Positions 41,840 to 48,364 are shown, counted from the first letter of the stretch. The stretch: DNA of 64,000 nt from Gammaproteobacteria bacterium (GCA_965243205.1 CBDEUK010000002.1:2208001-2272000); one strand, 5' to 3'. Notes: generated by a model from the sequence alone, not told the origin. Translations and numbers: made by a program.

Positions 41840-42286
41840 ATGGAACGGCATGTTGTTTTACAAAAGGCTTGTGATTATTTAGCTCGGCGCGAGCATAGTC
41901 GTAAGGAATTAGAACGGAAGTTGGCGCAAGGATGTGCTGATTCCGATCTAATCGATGAATTACTCAGTAAATTAGCCGAAGAAGGTCTGCAAAGCGATGA
42001 GCGTTTTACTGAAAGTTTTGTACATCATCGCTATCAAAAAGGTCACGGCCCACAAAAAATCCGTAATGAATTAAGCCAAAAAGGTGTAAAAAGTTGGCTT
42101 GTTGATGAATATCTTTCCAATCCTAAACTCGATTGGTATTCCCTTTGCTCAGAAATCAGACAAAAAAAATTTGGAATAGATCGCCCTAAAGACATAAAAG
42201 ATAAGGCAAAACAGTCTCGTTTTTTGTATTCTCGCGGTTTCGATTCTGAAATGATTATGTATGCATTGGAGATGTCTGAAGAGTGA
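41840..42286 (+). CDS. recX: Regulatory protein RecX
   Basis: [35 protein letters not shown]; follows recA. Confidence 0.95.
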
Positions 42287-44889
42287 AAACCACAAACGAA
42301 ATACGCGAACTGTTTTTACAGTATTTTAAGAAGCAACAGCACCAGATAGTTGCCAGCAGTTCATTAGTTCCTGCGAATGATCCAACGCTCTTATTTACCA
42401 ATGCAGGTATGGTTCAATTCAAAGAAGTGTTCCTGGGGCAAGATGATCGAGGTTACTCTCGTGCCACCAGTTCCCAACGTTGTGTACGTGCGGGTGGTAA
42501 ACACAATGATTTGGAAAACGTTGGTTATACCGCTCGTCACCATACCTTTTTTGAAATGCTTGGCAATTTTAGTTTTGGTGATTATTTCAAAAAAGAAGCC
42601 ATTCAATTCGCTTGGGAGTTTTTAACCAAAGAGCTAGGTTTACCTGAAGAAAAGCTCTGGGTCACTGTCTACACTGATGATGAAGAAGCCGAGAAAATTT
42701 GGCTCAATGATATTGGTGTTTCTAAAGATCTCATGAGTCGTTGCGGTGAAAAAGATAATTTTTGGTCGATGGGAGATACAGGACCATGCGGACCATGTAG
42801 TGAAATTTTTTACGATCATGGACCCGAAATTCCTGGTGGTCCTCCTGGTAGTCCCGATGAAGATGCCGATAGATATATCGAAATTTGGAATTTAGTTTTT
42901 ACTCAATTTGATCGTGCTAAAGATGGAACCTTAAATCCGTTACCAAAACCATCTGTTGATACAGGTATGGGTCTAGAGCGTATCGCTGCCGTGATGCAAG
43001 GCGTTCACAATAATTATGATATCGATTTATTTAAGAACCTGATAAAAGCAATTCATGATTTAGCAGGCGGACGAGATTTAGAAACGATGTCGACACGCGT
43101 AGTCGCTGATCATATTCGTTCTTGTGCATTCTTGATTTCAGATGGCGTGATTCCATCAAACGAAGGACGAGGTTACGTGTTAAGACGAATCATCCGCCGC
43201 GCGATTCGTCATGGTAATAAGCTTGGCTTTAATGAACCGTTCTTTCATAAATTAGTTGCCGCTTTAGTAGTTGAGATGGGCGATGCTTATCCTGAGTTGA
43301 AAGATAATCAAGCTCAAATTGAAAAGGTTTTAAAACAAGAAGAAGAGCGTTTTGCAGAAACACTCGGACAAGGATTGAAATTGTTCAAAGATGTGATTGC
43401 CAAGATGGATGGCAAAGAAGTCCCAGGGGATGAGGTATTTAAACTTTATGATACTTATGGATTCCCTGTGGATTTAACGGCAGATATTGCACGTGAGCAA
43501 GGACTCACTATAGATATGAAAGGCTATGAGTCATCTATGGCAAATCAAAAAGCCAAAGCCCGAGCAGCCAGTAAATTTGAAATGGATGCGAGTCTATTTC
43601 CTCAAATAGACAAAGAGACTGAGTTCTTAGGTTATGTTTCGTTGCAAGAGAAAACCAAAATAGCGGATATATTTCAAGAAGGACGTTCAGTCAACGAGAT
43701 AAAAGCCGGTGAGTCAGGTGGTATAGTTTTGGATTCGACCCCCTTCTATGCTGAGTCGGGGGGGCAAGTGGGTGACCAAGGACTTATATTTGGTGGTGAT
43801 GCTGAATTTAAAGTTGAAGATACACTTAAACAGGGTAAGGCTCATATTCATATCGGTAAATTAGATAAGGGCGTTCTCAAAGTTGGTGAACAAGTTACGG
43901 CAGTTGTGAATGAGAACCGTCGCAGTGACATTGTTCGAAACCATTCTGCTACCCACTTATTACACGCAGCTTTAAGGACAATACTCGGTTCTCATGTTCA
44001 GCAAAAAGGTTCTCTGGTAGCACCAGAACGTTTGCGTTTTGATTTCTCGCATCCTGAGCCGATTCAAACTGAAAAATTACGTGAAATTGAGCGATTGGTT
44101 AATTCAGTCATTTTACGTAATGAAGAAGCTGAGATTCAGGTGATGGGATTAGACGACGCAAAGAAATCTGGAGCTATGTCTTTATTCGGTGAGAAATATG
44201 AATCAGAAGTACGAGTTTTGAATATTGGCGCCAGTTTTTCCATCGAACTTTGTGGTGGTACCCATGTAACTCATTCTGGTGATATCGGCTTATTTAAGAT
44301 CGTAACTGAAACTGGTATTGCTTCTGGCGTCAGAAGAATCGAAGCCGTTACAGGTCGTGGTGCAATGAATTGGGTTGAACAAAGTGAAACTCAAATATCT
44401 GAAATAAGTGAATTACTCAAAAGTGATCAGGACAATCTAGTTCAAAAACTGAAACAACAATTAGAAAAAAATAAACTACTGGAAAAAGAACTCGATCAAC
44501 TGAAATCCAAATTAGCCAGCAATGCTGGTAATGATATGGTGTCCGAAGCGGTTGAGATTGACGGAATCAAAGTTTTAGCCAAGCATTTAGAAAACGTTGA
44601 TCCAAAAACATTACGCGATACCGTTGATCAACTTAAAAATAAACTAGGTTCAGCGGCACTGGTATTAGCAACGGTTAAAGATAATAAAGTGAGTTTGGTC
44701 GCGGGCGTAACGAAAGACCAAACAGATAAGGTAAAAGCGGGTGAATTAGTGAATTTTGTTGCCCAACAGGTCGGTGGTAAAGGTGGTGGTAGACCTGATA
44801 TGGCTCAAGCTGGTGGTAATAATCCTGCTGAATTGGATAATGCTTTAACGGGTGTCAGCGATTGGGTTAAAGAACAACTATCGAAATAA
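42283..44889 (+). CDS. alaS: Alanine--tRNA ligase
   Basis: [53 protein letters not shown]; GTG start. Confidence 0.99.
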
Positions 44890-45038: not shown

Positions 45039-46265
45039 ATGGCTCTTTTAGTACAAAAATTTGGTGGGACATCTGTAGGAACCAGCGAACGCATTTTGGC
45101 GATCACTGAACAGATTATTTCTAACCGAAATAAGGGTCATGATTTAGTAGTGGTTGTATCTGCCATGAGTGGAGAAACCAACCGTTTAGTTGATTTGGCT
45201 AGTTCCGTCAGCGAATCCCCTAATGAACGTGAAATGGATGTCCTGCTTTCAACCGGAGAACAGGTTACTATTGCTTTACTTAGTATGGCATTGCAGGCTC
45301 GTAATTGCCCTGCAATATCTTATACTGGTAGTCAGGTACAGATAAAAACAGATAATACTCATACTAAGGCACGAATTCTTGAAATCGATGCTGAAAATGT
45401 TAAAAGTGATTTAGCTAAAGGAAAAGTTGTCGTGATCGCTGGTTTTCAAGGAATTGATGAAAACGGTGATATTACTACCTTGGGACGTGGTGGTTCGGAT
45501 ACCACTGCTGTAGCAATGGCTGCTGCATTAGATGCAGATGAATGTCAGATATTTACTGACGTTGATGGCGTATATACAGCTGACCCAAGAATTGTTCAGG
45601 ATGCGTCAAAAATGGAACGCATCACCTATGAAGAAATGCTCGAAATGGCGAGCTTAGGATCAAAAGTTTTACAGATTCGATCAGTTGAATTTGCCAGAAA
45701 ATATAATGTCCCATTAAGGGTATTATCATCATTTACCCAAGGTACTGGTACACTGATTGGAGATGAGGAAAATAATGTGGAAGCAGCACTTATTTCAGGT
45801 ATTGCGCACAACCGAGACGAAGCAAAAGTAACGGTTGTTGGAGTACCAGATCAACCTGGAATTGCACACGCGATTTTAGGTCCAATTGCAGATATCAATG
45901 TCGAAGTGGACATGATAGTGCAAAATGTCGGTGTCGATAATACGACTGATTTTACCTTCACCGTACATAGAAATGATTACGACAAGTCTTTGCGAAAGCT
46001 AGAAGAAGTAGCAAATGAACTTGGAGCATCAGCAGTAAAAGGAGATGACAGAATAGTGAAAATATCGGTTGTAGGAGTCGGTATGCGTTCACACGCTGGC
46101 ATCGCGAGCAAGATGTTCAAGGCCCTAGCAGATGAAGGTATTAATATCATGATGATATCAACATCAGAAATTAAGGTTTCTGTCGTTGTTGAAGAGAAGT
46201 ATTTGGAGTTGGGTGTAAGAACTTTACATTCGGCCTTCGGCCTAGAAGGAGAAGCTGCAGCTTAA
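45039..46265 (+). CDS. lysC: Aspartate kinase
   Basis: VQKFGGTSVG, TLGRGGSDTTAVA, DVDGVYTADP, two ACT domains. Confidence 0.96.
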   Translation: MALLVQKFGGTSVGTSERILAITEQIISNRNKGHDLVVVVSAMSGETNRLVDLASSVSESPNEREMDVLLSTGEQVTIALLSMALQARNCPAISYTGSQVQIKTDNTHTKARILEIDAENVKSDLAKGKVVVIAGFQGIDENGDITTLGRGGSDTTAVAMAAALDADECQIFTDVDGVYTADPRIVQDASKMERITYEEMLEMASLGSKVLQIRSVEFARKYNVPLRVLSSFTQGTGTLIGDEENNVEAALISGIAHNRDEAKVTVVGVPDQPGIAHAILGPIADINVEVDMIVQNVGVDNTTDFTFTVHRNDYDKSLRKLEEVANELGASAVKGDDRIVKISVVGVGMRSHAGIASKMFKALADEGINIMMISTSEIKVSVVVEEKYLELGVRTLHSAFGLEGEAAA

Positions 46266-46349
46266 GTATTAGTTGTTAGCTGGAAAGATCTGCGGAAGTA
46301 AATTAAGGAAGATATTTATAAAAAATGAGCGATAGTAGGAGATGTAAAA

Positions 46350-46553
46350 ATGTTAATTTTAACTAGAAGAGTTGGCGAATCGTTGATGATTGGCGATGAT
46401 GTCAATGTTACCGTTCTAGGTATACGTGGTAACCAAGTCAGAATTGGTGTTAATGCACCAAAAGAAGTTTCTGTACACCGCGAAGAAATTTACGAGCGTA
46501 TACAACAAGAAAAGAGCGGCAATGCACCATCGTCTCAAGACGAACAAGAGTAA
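46350..46553 (+). CDS. csrA: Carbon storage regulator CsrA/RsmA
   Basis: [18 protein letters not shown]...QVRIG..AP...VHREEIY. Confidence 0.99.
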
Positions 46554-46714
46554 TTAATATCAAGATATTTTTTTAAAAAAAGGATTTTTCTTGTTTAAAC
46601 AAAGCAAAATTTATTGCATTGCATGTGCACGTTAGTAAGGTTGCTATTTAAGCATGCAATATCATAAGTGTAGTTATCTATACCCTTAAATTTTTATTAT
46701 TGTCCTACTTTTTC

Positions 46715-46742
46715 TAGACTTTCAATGATCTAAAGATAAAAT
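46715..46742 (+). promoter_or_regulatory. Putative sigma70 promoter of the tRNA operon
   Basis: TAGACT-N16-TAAAAT ending about 10 bp before the tRNA-Ser 5' copy at 46752. Confidence 0.45.
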
Positions 46743-46751
46743 AAAACAAAC

Positions 46752-46875
46752 GGAGAGGTGGCCGACAATTTTGTCAGGAACAAAATTGGACATTTGAGCA
46801 AAGCGAAAATGGTACGAAGTACCGAAGCTCAGGATGAGCTGAGTCAACGGCTGAAGGTAATCGACGAAGTCGATT
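46752..46875 (+). pseudogene. tRNA-Ser 5'-third duplicate, interrupted in the D-loop by an ~82-nt hairpin-rich insert and ending in a GAA-triloop hairpin
   Basis: GGAGAGGTGGCCGA (46752-46765) and CGGCTGAAGG (46848-46857) are identical to the start of the tRNA at 46921. It is followed by AATCGAC-GAA-GTCGATT; no anticodon arm, T arm or 3' acceptor strand. Confidence 0.8.
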
Positions 46876-46920
46876 TTAAGAGTAAGCTAAACAATATAAT
46901 ATTTTAATAATATATATAAC

Positions 46921-47012
46921 GGAGAGGTGGCCGAGCGGCTGAAGGCGCTCCCCTGCTAAGGGAGTATACGGTTTATCCCGTATCGAGGGTTCGAATCCCT
47001 CTCTCTCCGCCA
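46921..47012 (+). tRNA. tRNA-Ser(GCT)
   Basis: GGAGAG acceptor stem, CTCCC-CTGCTAA-GGGAG anticodon arm, long variable arm, GGTTCGAATCC, encoded CCA. Confidence 0.97.
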
Positions 47013-47058
47013 TTTGACTATCTCGATCAAATCTATATTATTCGCCGTTCTTAATTAC

Positions 47059-47152
47059 GCGCCCGTAGCTCAGTGGACGACGTGCAGGAGCACAAGTGTC
47101 GCGAGAGGCAGGACGCCGATAGCGACGAGAGTACCGCAACACGAAGTGTTGC
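47059..47152 (+). pseudogene. tRNA-Arg 5'-third duplicate, interrupted in the D-loop by an ~50-nt hairpin insert and ending in a GAA-triloop hairpin
   Basis: GCGCCCGTAGCTCAG-TGGA (47059-47077) and AGAGTACC (47128-47135) match the tRNA at 47198; followed by GCAACAC-GAA-GTGTTGC. Confidence 0.8.
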
Positions 47153-47197
47153 TTAGATAGAACTTAAGTAAGTAACAATTTATACTTTTCATATAAC

Positions 47198-47274
47198 GCG
47201 CCCGTAGCTCAGCTGGATAGAGTACCTGGCTACGAACTAGGGGGTCGGAGGTTCGAATCCTTCCGGGCGCGCCA
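47198..47274 (+). tRNA. tRNA-Arg(ACG)
   Basis: GCGCCCG/CGGGCGC acceptor stem, CCTGG-CTACGAA-CTAGG anticodon arm, GGTTCGAATCC, CCA. Confidence 0.97.
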
Positions 47275-47283
47275 TTTAAAATA

Positions 47284-47305
47284 GCCACCTATCAGGTGGT
47301 TTTTT
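47284..47305 (+). terminator. Rho-independent terminator of the tRNA operon
   Basis: GCCACCT-ATC-AGGTGGT followed by a T-run. Confidence 0.8.
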
Positions 47306-47482
47306 ATTTCATCAATAGTAAATCGTAATTCAAATACTCCATTTAATAATCATTGATATGCAAGAACTGCTTTGTATTTTTCTTGCAGTTACATAGATGC
47401 TCATCCACTTTAGTAATACCAATAGATAAATCGCAAACATTATCAAATCAATCCTCTTATTATGAAACTCCGAGGTAAATAG

Positions 47483-48364
47483 ATGAAAAAGAGCACAGGT
47501 CAAAATTATCGTAAGCGGCTAAGCAAAGTTGTTGATTATATTTATCAACATTTGGATGAAGATTTAGGTGTAAACACATTGGCTGAGATTGCGATGATGT
47601 CGCCATATCATTTTCATCGAATTTATCGTGAGATGGCACAAGAAACGGTGAATGCTACTGTCAGAAGATTACGTCTTGAGAGAGCAGCTTCGGATTTAAT
47701 CCGCACCAATTTGCCGTTATTAACTATTGCTAAGAGTGTTTCTTATGGAAGTTTAGAAGCGTTTAGTCGTGCATTCACTAATCAGTATGGAGAATCACCA
47801 AGTCAATATCGCGCAGATCGAAATGTTTCAACAATGAAACAGGAGATATCTATGCCAGTTATGTTAGATCCACAAGAGGAGTATTACGATATGTATGATG
47901 TAGAAATGTTAGATTTTGAAGGTGTTTATTTAGCAGGATATGAACATCAAGGAGACTATATGGAGATTGGTAACGTGTTTGAAAAAATATTTTTATATGC
48001 AAGTAGTCATGGGCTTATGAGTGAGAAAACTCGATCATTCGGTATCTATTATGATGATCCAAAATCTGTTGATGAAAAAGATTTGCGTTCAATGGCGTGT
48101 ATTAGTGTTGAACAGAGCTTGGAAAGTAAAGATGAAGATGCCCCGAACGATATCACGGTTCCTGCGAGTAAATGTGCGAGTGTTTTGTTTAAAGGTTCCT
48201 ATGCAGAGTTAGAGAAGCCATACGATTGGTTCTTTGGTCATTGGTTACCTCAAAGCGGCTATGAAGCTGCAGACTTCCCACCTTTTGAAGAATATTTGAA
48301 TGATCCTAAAACGACTCCGCCGAGTGAGTTATTAACCAGGATTTATTGTTTATTGGCTGAATAA
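47483..48364 (+). CDS. AraC-family regulator with GyrI-like effector domain
   Basis: SPYHFHRIY, RRLRLERAA, EAFSRAF...P..YR; C-terminal GIYYDDP, WLPQSG, FEEYLNDP. Confidence 0.9.
   Translation: MKKSTGQNYRKRLSKVVDYIYQHLDEDLGVNTLAEIAMMSPYHFHRIYREMAQETVNATVRRLRLERAASDLIRTNLPLLTIAKSVSYGSLEAFSRAFTNQYGESPSQYRADRNVSTMKQEISMPVMLDPQEEYYDMYDVEMLDFEGVYLAGYEHQGDYMEIGNVFEKIFLYASSHGLMSEKTRSFGIYYDDPKSVDEKDLRSMACISVEQSLESKDEDAPNDITVPASKCASVLFKGSYAELEKPYDWFFGHWLPQSGYEAADFPPFEEYLNDPKTTPPSELLTRIYCLLAE

Follow-up and report, generated by a model that had tools for sequence, protein, structure and literature searches.

The stretch of DNA analysed here, a window of 64,000 nucleotides from a Gammaproteobacteria bacterium (GCA_965243205.1, CBDEUK010000002.1:2208001-2272000), carries csrA and, behind it on the same strand, the genes for tRNA-Ser(GCU) and tRNA-Arg(ACG). 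Upstream neighbours of the csrA region are lysC and alaS. Each of the two tRNA genes is preceded by a structured element, termed unit A (before tRNA-Ser) and unit B (before tRNA-Arg) in the following. A preliminary description had placed four hairpins with GGA in the loop in the tRNA spacers just downstream of csrA. All four hairpins are present and lie on the tRNA strand (Table 1), however they are not part of plain spacers. Direct repeats reveal instead that they sit inside truncated 5' copies of the adjacent tRNAs. Positions 46740-46765, covering the leader and bases 1-15 of tRNA-Ser, are identical to 46909-46934, and 46848-46857, from the 3' half of the D arm (loop and stem), recurs at 46936-46945. 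Likewise, 47054-47073 repeats 47193-47212, the leader and 5' end of tRNA-Arg. In both units the beginning of the next tRNA is copied in truncated form, with leader, 5' acceptor strand and D arm. A run of hairpins is placed inside the D loop of this copy, and a stable C-GAA-G triloop hairpin takes the place of the anticodon arm. In unit A a D-stem-like helix (46760-46764/46848-52) closes four hairpins, which are followed by a fifth. The distance from the units to tRNA-Ser and tRNA-Arg, respectively, is 45-50 nt. No copy of a tRNA 3' end was found within 46554-47197.

Table 1. Features of the csrA-tRNA-Ser-tRNA-Arg locus, with positions counted from the first nucleotide of the window.
Feature	Position	Strand	Evidence or remark
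csrA (67 aa)	46350..46553	+	Open reading frame listing; Pfam CsrA PF02599, 95.4 bits, E 1.9e-27
Promoter-like TAGACT-16-TAAAAT before unit A	46715..46742	+	9/12 matches
Unit A, 5'-type tRNA-Ser-like unit	46752..46875	+	Direct repeats, fold, R1 90.5 bits, homologues in other genera
Unit A, copy of tRNA-Ser bases 1-15	46752..46766		
Unit A, cassette	46764..46847		
Unit A, hairpin 1 of cassette, AATTTTGT-CAGGA-ACAAAATT	46767..46787	+	Sequence, fold, homologue covariation
Unit A, hairpins 2 (variable, 46792-46810) and 3 (GGTAC-GAA-GTACC, 46811-46823) of cassette	46792..46823	+	Fold
Unit A, hairpin 4 of cassette, AGCTC-AGGAT-GAGCT, includes CAGGATG	46826..46840	+	Sequence, homologue covariation
Unit A, D-arm 3' part CGGCTGAAGG	46848..46857		
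Unit A, terminal hairpin AATCGAC-GAA-GTCGATT	46859..46875	+	
tRNA-Ser(GCU)	46921..47012	+	ARAGORN; Rfam tRNA 55.6 bits
Promoter-like TTGACT-16-TATTAT before unit B	47014..47041	+	10/12 matches; not significant versus shuffles
Unit B, 5'-type tRNA-Arg-like unit	47059..47152	+	Direct repeat, fold, R2 99.6 bits
Unit B, copy of tRNA-Arg bases 1-19	47059..47077		
Unit B, 50-nt insert	47078..47127		
Unit B, hairpin GTGC-AGGA-GCAC	47082..47093	+	Sequence, fold
Unit B, nested pair: outer stem GTCGC/GCGAC, inner GGC-AGGAC-GCC (47107..47117)	47098..47126	+	Sequence, fold
Unit B, D-arm 3' part AGAGTACC	47128..47135		
Unit B, terminal hairpin GCAACAC-GAA-GTGTTGC	47136..47152	+	
tRNA-Arg(ACG)	47198..47274	+	ARAGORN; Rfam tRNA 62.2 bits
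Terminator-like hairpin with T run	47283..47301	+	Only one on this strand from csrA to the end of the tRNA cluster

Each unit has two GGA hairpin loops, in agreement with the two sites per spacer claimed before. The motif is specific to the tRNA strand. GGA to TCC counts are 4:0 in unit A and 3:0 in unit B, and a hairpin scan of the minus strand inside both units returned no GGA-loop hairpin. The predicted fold of unit A has a z-score of -3.12, with one of 200 shuffles equal. For the hairpin at 46826-46840 the minimum-energy fold favours another register (GCUCAG/CUGAGU), however homologues back the register that was noted first.

Related units are found in other genera. We used two covariance models, R1 for the Ser-type cassette, which was built without E. 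coli sequences, and R2 for the Arg-type unit; the family set consisted of 61 genomes from 34 genera, with the genome of the window as G000. R1 has matches in 43 of the 61 genomes (26 of the 34 genera), with 0-42 copies per genome, two of them in the genome of the window and four in the sister species. Ser-type 5' units precede tRNA-Ser GCU, UGA and GGA in other genera, and Arg-type 5' units precede tRNA-Arg ACG, UCG and CCG. The tRNA-like parts of these relatives track the variants of the adjacent tRNA, with GGCAGA and TGGTTGAATGC before tRNA-Ser(UGA) and GCGTCCGTAGCTCAA before tRNA-Arg(UCG). The 5'-type units that were inspected carry the cassette on the same strand as the tRNA. In an alignment of 12 Ser-type cassettes from 8 genomes and 8 genera, changes on both sides, i.e. 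compensatory changes, occur in 9 of the 15 predicted pairs. GGA is kept in the loop of hairpin 1 in 11 and of hairpin 4 in 10 of these 12 cassettes. The stem of hairpin 4 varies between AGCTC/GAGCT, GGCAC/GTGCC and AGCAC/GTGCT in homologues, and hairpin 3 reads GGTAC-GAA/GCA-GTACC or GGCCC-GAA-GGGG. The Arg type is represented by 8 strong R2 homologues in 8 genomes, located before tRNA-Arg ACG, CCG or UCG. All eight keep both GGA loops, their inner stem covaries (GGC/GCC, GAC/GTC, GTC/GAC, GCGC/GCGC), and the terminal triloop hairpin is conserved in structure and variable in sequence. Conservation of the GGA loops, on which the preliminary description had made its proposal depend, is thus borne out in the related units. 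It is this retention of GGA, together with the covarying stems of the units in other genera, that raises the hairpins above chance.

A second, 3'-type architecture is found behind tRNAs in the family, with the order GGTTCGA / cassette / AATCC followed by the tRNA 3' end and CCA. A blastn-short search detected no other copies of unit A or B in the own genome; R1 later found one further cassette there, in a 3'-type unit behind tRNA-Thr(CGU) (G000:C2:664051-664125, minus strand). There, the tRNA is followed by a terminator hairpin and then by GGTTCGA / cassette (loops CAGGA and AGGA) / AATCCTCTCTCCGGCACCA. The tRNA-derived flanks of such units are often palindromic, as in the 5' Ser units L024, L025, L040 and L089, e.g. 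GGCGC-GGA-GGGAGCGCC from the anticodon-stem segment, and the 3' units L002, L027 and L075 are preceded by the tRNA 3' end in inverted orientation. Palindromic flanks hint at fold-back or template-switch events in the origin of the units. At one locus (L007, G018:C9:~540-620) a tandem GTGACAA heptamer with about 7 copies adjoins a 5' tRNA-Ser unit with a double cassette. In genome G072 the cassette is also part of two families of dispersed repeats, each about 200-300 nt in length (L220-L225, L227 and L228-L230), with no tRNA nearby, and in one of these families a GATACAAGGATGTATC hairpin is located directly upstream of the cassette.

The cassette is widely distributed in Gammaproteobacteria. 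A scan with a degenerate hairpin-1 pattern, using one genome per species, returned at least 120 loci that are labelled Gammaproteobacteria or unclassified proteobacteria, save one 'delta proteobacterium'. Among them are Citrobacter, Klebsiella, Serratia, Pectobacterium, Yersinia, Salmonella diarizonae, Rheinheimera and Arsukibacterium, as well as Rhodanobacter, Dyella, Methylococcales, Thioalkalivibrio and Marinobacter. Of these loci, 100 yielded a total of 119 cassettes in an alignment with R1. In this alignment, which is fitted to the model so that the pairing figures have to be read with this caveat, 95.4% of the cells are paired compared to 75.3% in shuffles, and 358 cells have double changes compared to 98. 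None of 500 shuffles attains the observed pairing or double-change values, and pairing drops to 15-46% when the partners are slid by 1-3 columns. The search pattern left the loop of hairpin 4 free; of the 101 such hairpins found in the 102 pattern-picked cassettes, 70 have GGA there. Among the 17 cassettes that were not pattern-picked, GGA is present in hairpin 1 in 14/17 and in hairpin 4 in 12/16. A crude sorting of the 119 contexts gives 24 of ERIC type, 18 3'-type tRNA units, 7 with a T-arm flank only, 4 of 5' type, 2 beside a copy of the 5S 3' end and 64 others, some of which are the opposite half of an ERIC. The start of the cassette is always after GA in a D loop or T loop. In Enterobacterales the cassette lies inside ERIC-like elements, as judged from cassette flanks that agree with the ERIC2 primer sequence given in PMC3696847. 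These copies have no link to a tRNA. Insertions within ERIC (IRU) elements were reportedly described in 1997 by Cromie, Collins and Leach and by Sharp (both cited in PMC3696847), and these insertions may be the cassette described here.

Experimentally studied relatives of unit A are found in E. coli. At loci of Citrobacter and Pseudescherichia the flanks of the cassette correspond to the E. coli rrnB T1-T2 region, and a 191-nt query is present to at least 80% in 3939 of 5426 E. coli genomes. In one E. coli record the match is located between the 5S gene (rrf) and mobB, between T1 and T2. In this record, a repeated 5S 3' end and then the second terminator come after the cassette. On one E. coli chromosome R1 matches exactly three places, rrA, rrB and rrF, each with 50.7 bits (E 1.4e-8). 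The unit A cassette and the E. coli core are identical in 49 of 88 aligned columns, and the score exceeds that of 500/500 shuffles. Identity of the cassette with BoxC, which has 56 bp and 32 copies in E. coli (PMC2267715), was rejected in view of the three R1 matches. The three E. coli cassettes belong to the tRNA-linked repeats (TLRs), of which 22 are present in K-12 and which have been known since 1978; what defines them is an 18-19-bp repeat of the upstream gene's 3' end (PMC8144298). The repeats rrA, rrB and rrF lie between T1 and T2 of rrnA, rrnB and rrnD and give rise to short-lived small RNAs (sRNAs) by read-through of T1 (Stenum et al., 2021, PMC8144298). CsrA was the top protein in a pull-down with RrB, and electrophoretic mobility shift assays gave a KD of about 100 nM (PMC8144298). 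Binding was lost when three GGAs, including both loop GGAs, were changed to UUU, and CsrB out-competes RrB for CsrA (PMC8144298). Conservation of RrB is reported there only within Enterobacterales, and the repeated 3' end of E. coli TLRs is suggested to be an RNase E recognition element (PMC8144298).

The cassette of the Ser type and that of the E. coli RrA, RrB and RrF have in common a GACAA start, an NGGA loop in hairpin 1, a GGCCC-GNRA-GGG hairpin and an AGGA loop in the last hairpin. Both lie within a partial copy of an adjacent stable-RNA gene, on the operon strand, and have two loop GGAs. Judged by sequence comparison, unit A is a homologue of the RrB core, and unit B appears as a shorter cassette of the same style; since R1 does not detect unit B, its link to RrB is one of resemblance. 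There are also clear differences. What is copied in the window is the tRNA 5' end that follows downstream (15 nt in unit A and 19 nt in unit B, with 3' parts of the D arm in addition), and the cassette sits in the D loop, while the E. coli elements copy the 3' end of the upstream 5S gene. The units are located upstream of their gene and not between two terminators. Units A and B share with TLRs the location in a tRNA/rRNA operon, but not the copied 3' end. CsrA binding, transcription and processing have been demonstrated for RrB, whereas the units of the window are known from their sequence.

A similar relation exists to RtT elements and the TLRs of E. coli tRNA operons, found in the tyrT, lysT-valT, serW-like and serV-argVYZQ clusters. 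These also combine a partial tRNA copy with inserted small hairpins (GGTTCGA / insert / AATCC and the tRNA 3' end), they occur in E. coli behind csrA too, at the orthologous locus, and the genome of the window has the 3'-type unit behind tRNA-Thr. In contrast to units A and B, the E. coli units of tRNA operons carry the 3' end of the upstream tRNA, and those inspected have GCA/GAA loops instead of GGA. The RtT model RF00391 (gathering threshold 45 bits) gave no match with E <= 10 in 46200-47500 and none with E <= 1 in the whole genome, where 27 candidates were scored. It weakly matches a Dyella 3'-type unit (31.2 bits), and in E. coli it finds 15 places, including the tyrT repeats, lysT-valT, the tRNA-Ser(GGA) locus, serV-argVYZQ and one rrn-distal cassette (E 0.048). 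The orthologous E. coli locus (L167, NZ_CP047658.1:1140124-1140922) has tRNA-Ser GCU followed by four tRNA-Arg ACG, with RtT-like 3'-type units between the Arg tRNAs whose loops are GCAAG/GAA, without GGA.

With CsrB, CsrC, RsmY and RsmZ the units share several GGAs in hairpin loops, two per unit and conserved in homologues, and a proposed titration of CsrA. CAGGA[U/C]G, which matches the CsrB repeat, is present in 2 of the 4 loops. Nevertheless, the units are not members of the CsrB/Rsm family. They differ in having no terminator of their own, and they would be made from the tRNA operon. A Rfam scan of 46200-47500 (E <= 10) found the two tRNAs only and no Csr/Rsm or RtT match. For TGTAAG-N6-CTTACA, the GacA/UvrY-type upstream box, with up to 3 mismatches, there are 22 occurrences in the window versus 36.8 expected, none of them upstream of unit A. 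A candidate for a canonical Csr/Rsm sRNA is located outside the window (G000:C2:~42140-42340, plus strand; L231:440-640). It is intergenic, has a terminator-like end, and contains CsrA-type hairpins (TTCACATGGATGTGAA, GAAACAGGAGGTTTC and TTTCAGGATGAGGAAA) within ~42170-42326. The TwoAYGGAY model (clan CL00106) scores 35.1 bits on the plus strand there and 39.1 bits on the minus strand just upstream, with a cut-off of 43. A further E. coli RNA to compare is 3'ETS-leuZ, a sponge that is derived from a tRNA spacer and pairs with sRNAs. It resembles the units in being a tRNA-operon by-product proposed as a decoy (PMC8144298). Unlike them, it is an ordinary transcribed spacer, with neither the build of a truncated tRNA nor a cassette for protein binding.

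The position just downstream of csrA given in the preliminary description is correct, however it is probably explained by an old csrA-tRNA-Ser-tRNA-Arg synteny. This order is common to E. coli, and the adjacency does not speak for a functional link. Among the matches listed, at least 12 family genomes from 11 genera have an R1 cassette no further than 1 kb downstream of csrA. In total, csrA was found in 55 of the 61 family genomes. Of these, 38 also have the R1 cassette and 17 do not; five genomes, drafts of 81-98% completeness, have the cassette without csrA, and one has neither. The genome of the window has a second csrA-like gene (G000:C1:26538-26693, minus strand; Pfam CsrA 89.2 bits) on its 460-kb second contig. 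In its RNA-binding part, CsrA is nearly identical to the E. coli protein. Promoter-like sites are present before both units, although their number in the region (5 versus 3.7 +/- 2.1 in shuffles) is not significant. Marine metatranscriptome contigs on the stretch cover only tRNA bodies and a piece of csrA and come from other organisms, and three runs presumed to be RNA gave no contig on it; neither observation has a bearing either way. An open reading frame of 293 aa (47483-48364, plus strand) lies 3' of the tRNA cluster.

On balance, we lean towards the reading that units A and B are 5'-type relatives of the E. coli TLRs, likely excised, that act as a low-capacity CsrA decoy tracking transcription of the tRNA operon. 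They would probably be made within or alongside the tRNA transcripts, because they share the strand of the tRNAs and are placed between promoter-like sites and a single terminator, and then be cut out. The freed RNA, about 90-125 nt long, would present GGA in two loops, with room for one CsrA dimer. The level of decoy would rise and fall with transcription of the tRNA operon, in the way suggested for RrA/B/F and the rRNA operons of E. coli. The cassette itself is also a repeat of variable copy number, which has settled across Gammaproteobacteria in loops of stable-RNA genes copied in truncated form, and in further small repeats. That a by-product of a stable-RNA operon with GGA loops binds CsrA has a precedent, because RrB does so. 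Thus, the decoy idea of the preliminary description is plausible, supported by the homology of unit A to RrB and already known in principle from E. coli TLRs, whereas its picture of excised plain spacers has to give way to truncated tRNA copies with an inserted cassette.

Several observations weigh against this reading. A same-genus relative lacks both units at the csrA-tRNA locus, in some genomes the cassette lies far from any tRNA or csrA, and its copy number ranges from 0 to 42. Absence from this relative and from the 17 csrA-bearing genomes without cassette indicates that the units are dispensable and turn over fast, like a selfish repeat. The spacer between tRNA-Ser and tRNA-Arg in this relative (L008, G001:C32:74277-74510) holds another element, with a GCACA-TGGA-TGTGC hairpin and T-arm-like flanks, and the content of the locus therefore turns over within the genus. 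The number of hairpins alone is not beyond chance, because a lenient scan of the genome (G+C 36.7%) finds 158 windows of 150 nt with at least three GGA-loop hairpins, so that density is not discriminating. The fold of unit B is only modest (z = -1.50, 17/200 shuffles equal), and unit B escapes detection by R1. The E. coli tRNA-operon units inspected have the 3'-type build and GCA/GAA instead of GGA loops, and the 19 TLRs of E. coli tRNA operons are predicted CsrA non-binders by InvenireSRNA (PMC8144298). Even for the rrn TLRs, deletion or over-expression gave modest CsrA phenotypes, both in the same direction, and two loop sites per unit compare with about 18 in CsrB (PMC8144298). Finally, the genome holds a separate Csr/Rsm-type sRNA candidate elsewhere, with matches below threshold.

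These points lead to the main alternative, namely that the units are a selfish, mobile or gene-conversion-spread structured repeat without host function, in which CsrA binding is incidental and the GGA loops serve the spread of the element itself, for example by being read by a recombinase or transposase on single-stranded hairpins. Such a repeat would survive only where its insertion is harmless, for example in the loop of a truncated tRNA or 5S copy or in another small repeat. We consider this rather unlikely, but it deserves serious attention. It would account for the variable copy number, with many equal-scoring copies in some genomes, for the two further dispersed repeat families of G072 that have no tRNA nearby, for the location inside ERIC-like elements of Enterobacterales and for the constant start after GA in the D or T loop. 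The absence of the units from the same locus in the same-genus relative and of the cassette from 17 csrA-bearing genomes also fits. Loops of the type C-GAA-G or C-GCA-G form very stable DNA mini-hairpins, and many loops of the cassette are of this type. However, neither a transposase or integrase nor a target duplication was identified. Over very wide distances GGA persists in the loops despite changing stems, and this speaks for a trans-acting reader shared by all Gammaproteobacteria. Every tRNA-linked case that was inspected lies on the tRNA strand, as expected for a role at the RNA level, and the E. coli relative RrB binds CsrA (PMC8144298). The selfish repeat and the CsrA decoy are compatible with each other, since a mobile cassette can bind CsrA too.

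A further alternative would see the units as aids to processing or transcription of the tRNA operon without any role of CsrA, providing entry sites for RNase E or RNase P, protecting the leader or timing maturation by competition of acceptor stems. The exactly kept leader and 5' end of the next tRNA would be in line with this, as would the terminal triloop hairpin, whose structure is kept while its sequence varies, and the suggestion of an RNase E element in the repeated 3' end of E. coli TLRs (PMC8144298). It leaves the retention of GGA in two loops unexplained, however, the same tRNAs occur without units in the sister species and many family genomes, and the cassette is also found away from tRNAs; we regard it as improbable. 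That the units are decaying tRNA pseudogenes with chance hairpins, for which one could cite the abundance of lenient GGA-loop hairpins in an AT-rich genome and the unexceptional fold of unit B, is barely credible, as it is already contradicted by covariation and loop conservation across genera and orders and by the specific covariance-model matches.

The 5'-type architecture, the place in tRNA operons and the wide spread are new. In the literature searched, which included neither the supplements of PMC8144298 (these may list homologues with a bearing on the spread) nor the ERIC notes of 1997, 5'-type units are not described, and neither is the cassette outside Enterobacterales. If the units do not bind CsrA, what remains is a tidy description of a repeat family with little regulatory interest. 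Independent of this, the TLRs, known since 1978 and lacking a function, gain a broader comparative frame of 5'-type units, ERIC insertions and copy-number bursts, and the much-used rrnB T1-T2 terminator fragment turns out to hold a member of a widespread element family. A wider proposal, which we put forward tentatively and hold to be unlikely as a whole, is that the RrB-type cassette is an ancient self-spreading CsrA-binding module of Gammaproteobacteria, located in the loops of truncated tRNA and 5S copies, in units of both 5' and 3' type, and in ERIC-like repeats, with feedback local to csrA. If so, by-products of rRNA and tRNA operons and repeat-bearing messages would feed CsrA availability in many lineages, and the site downstream of csrA, filled in at least 12 genomes of the family, would feed back locally on csrA itself. 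A link between stable-RNA synthesis and the Csr system has to date been proposed solely for the rRNA operons of E. coli, with weak phenotypes. If units such as A and B bind CsrA, they would represent a modular cassette that fits either half of a tRNA-like scaffold, and the link of stable-RNA synthesis to Csr would be a widespread gammaproteobacterial theme and not a peculiarity of three enteric rRNA operons.

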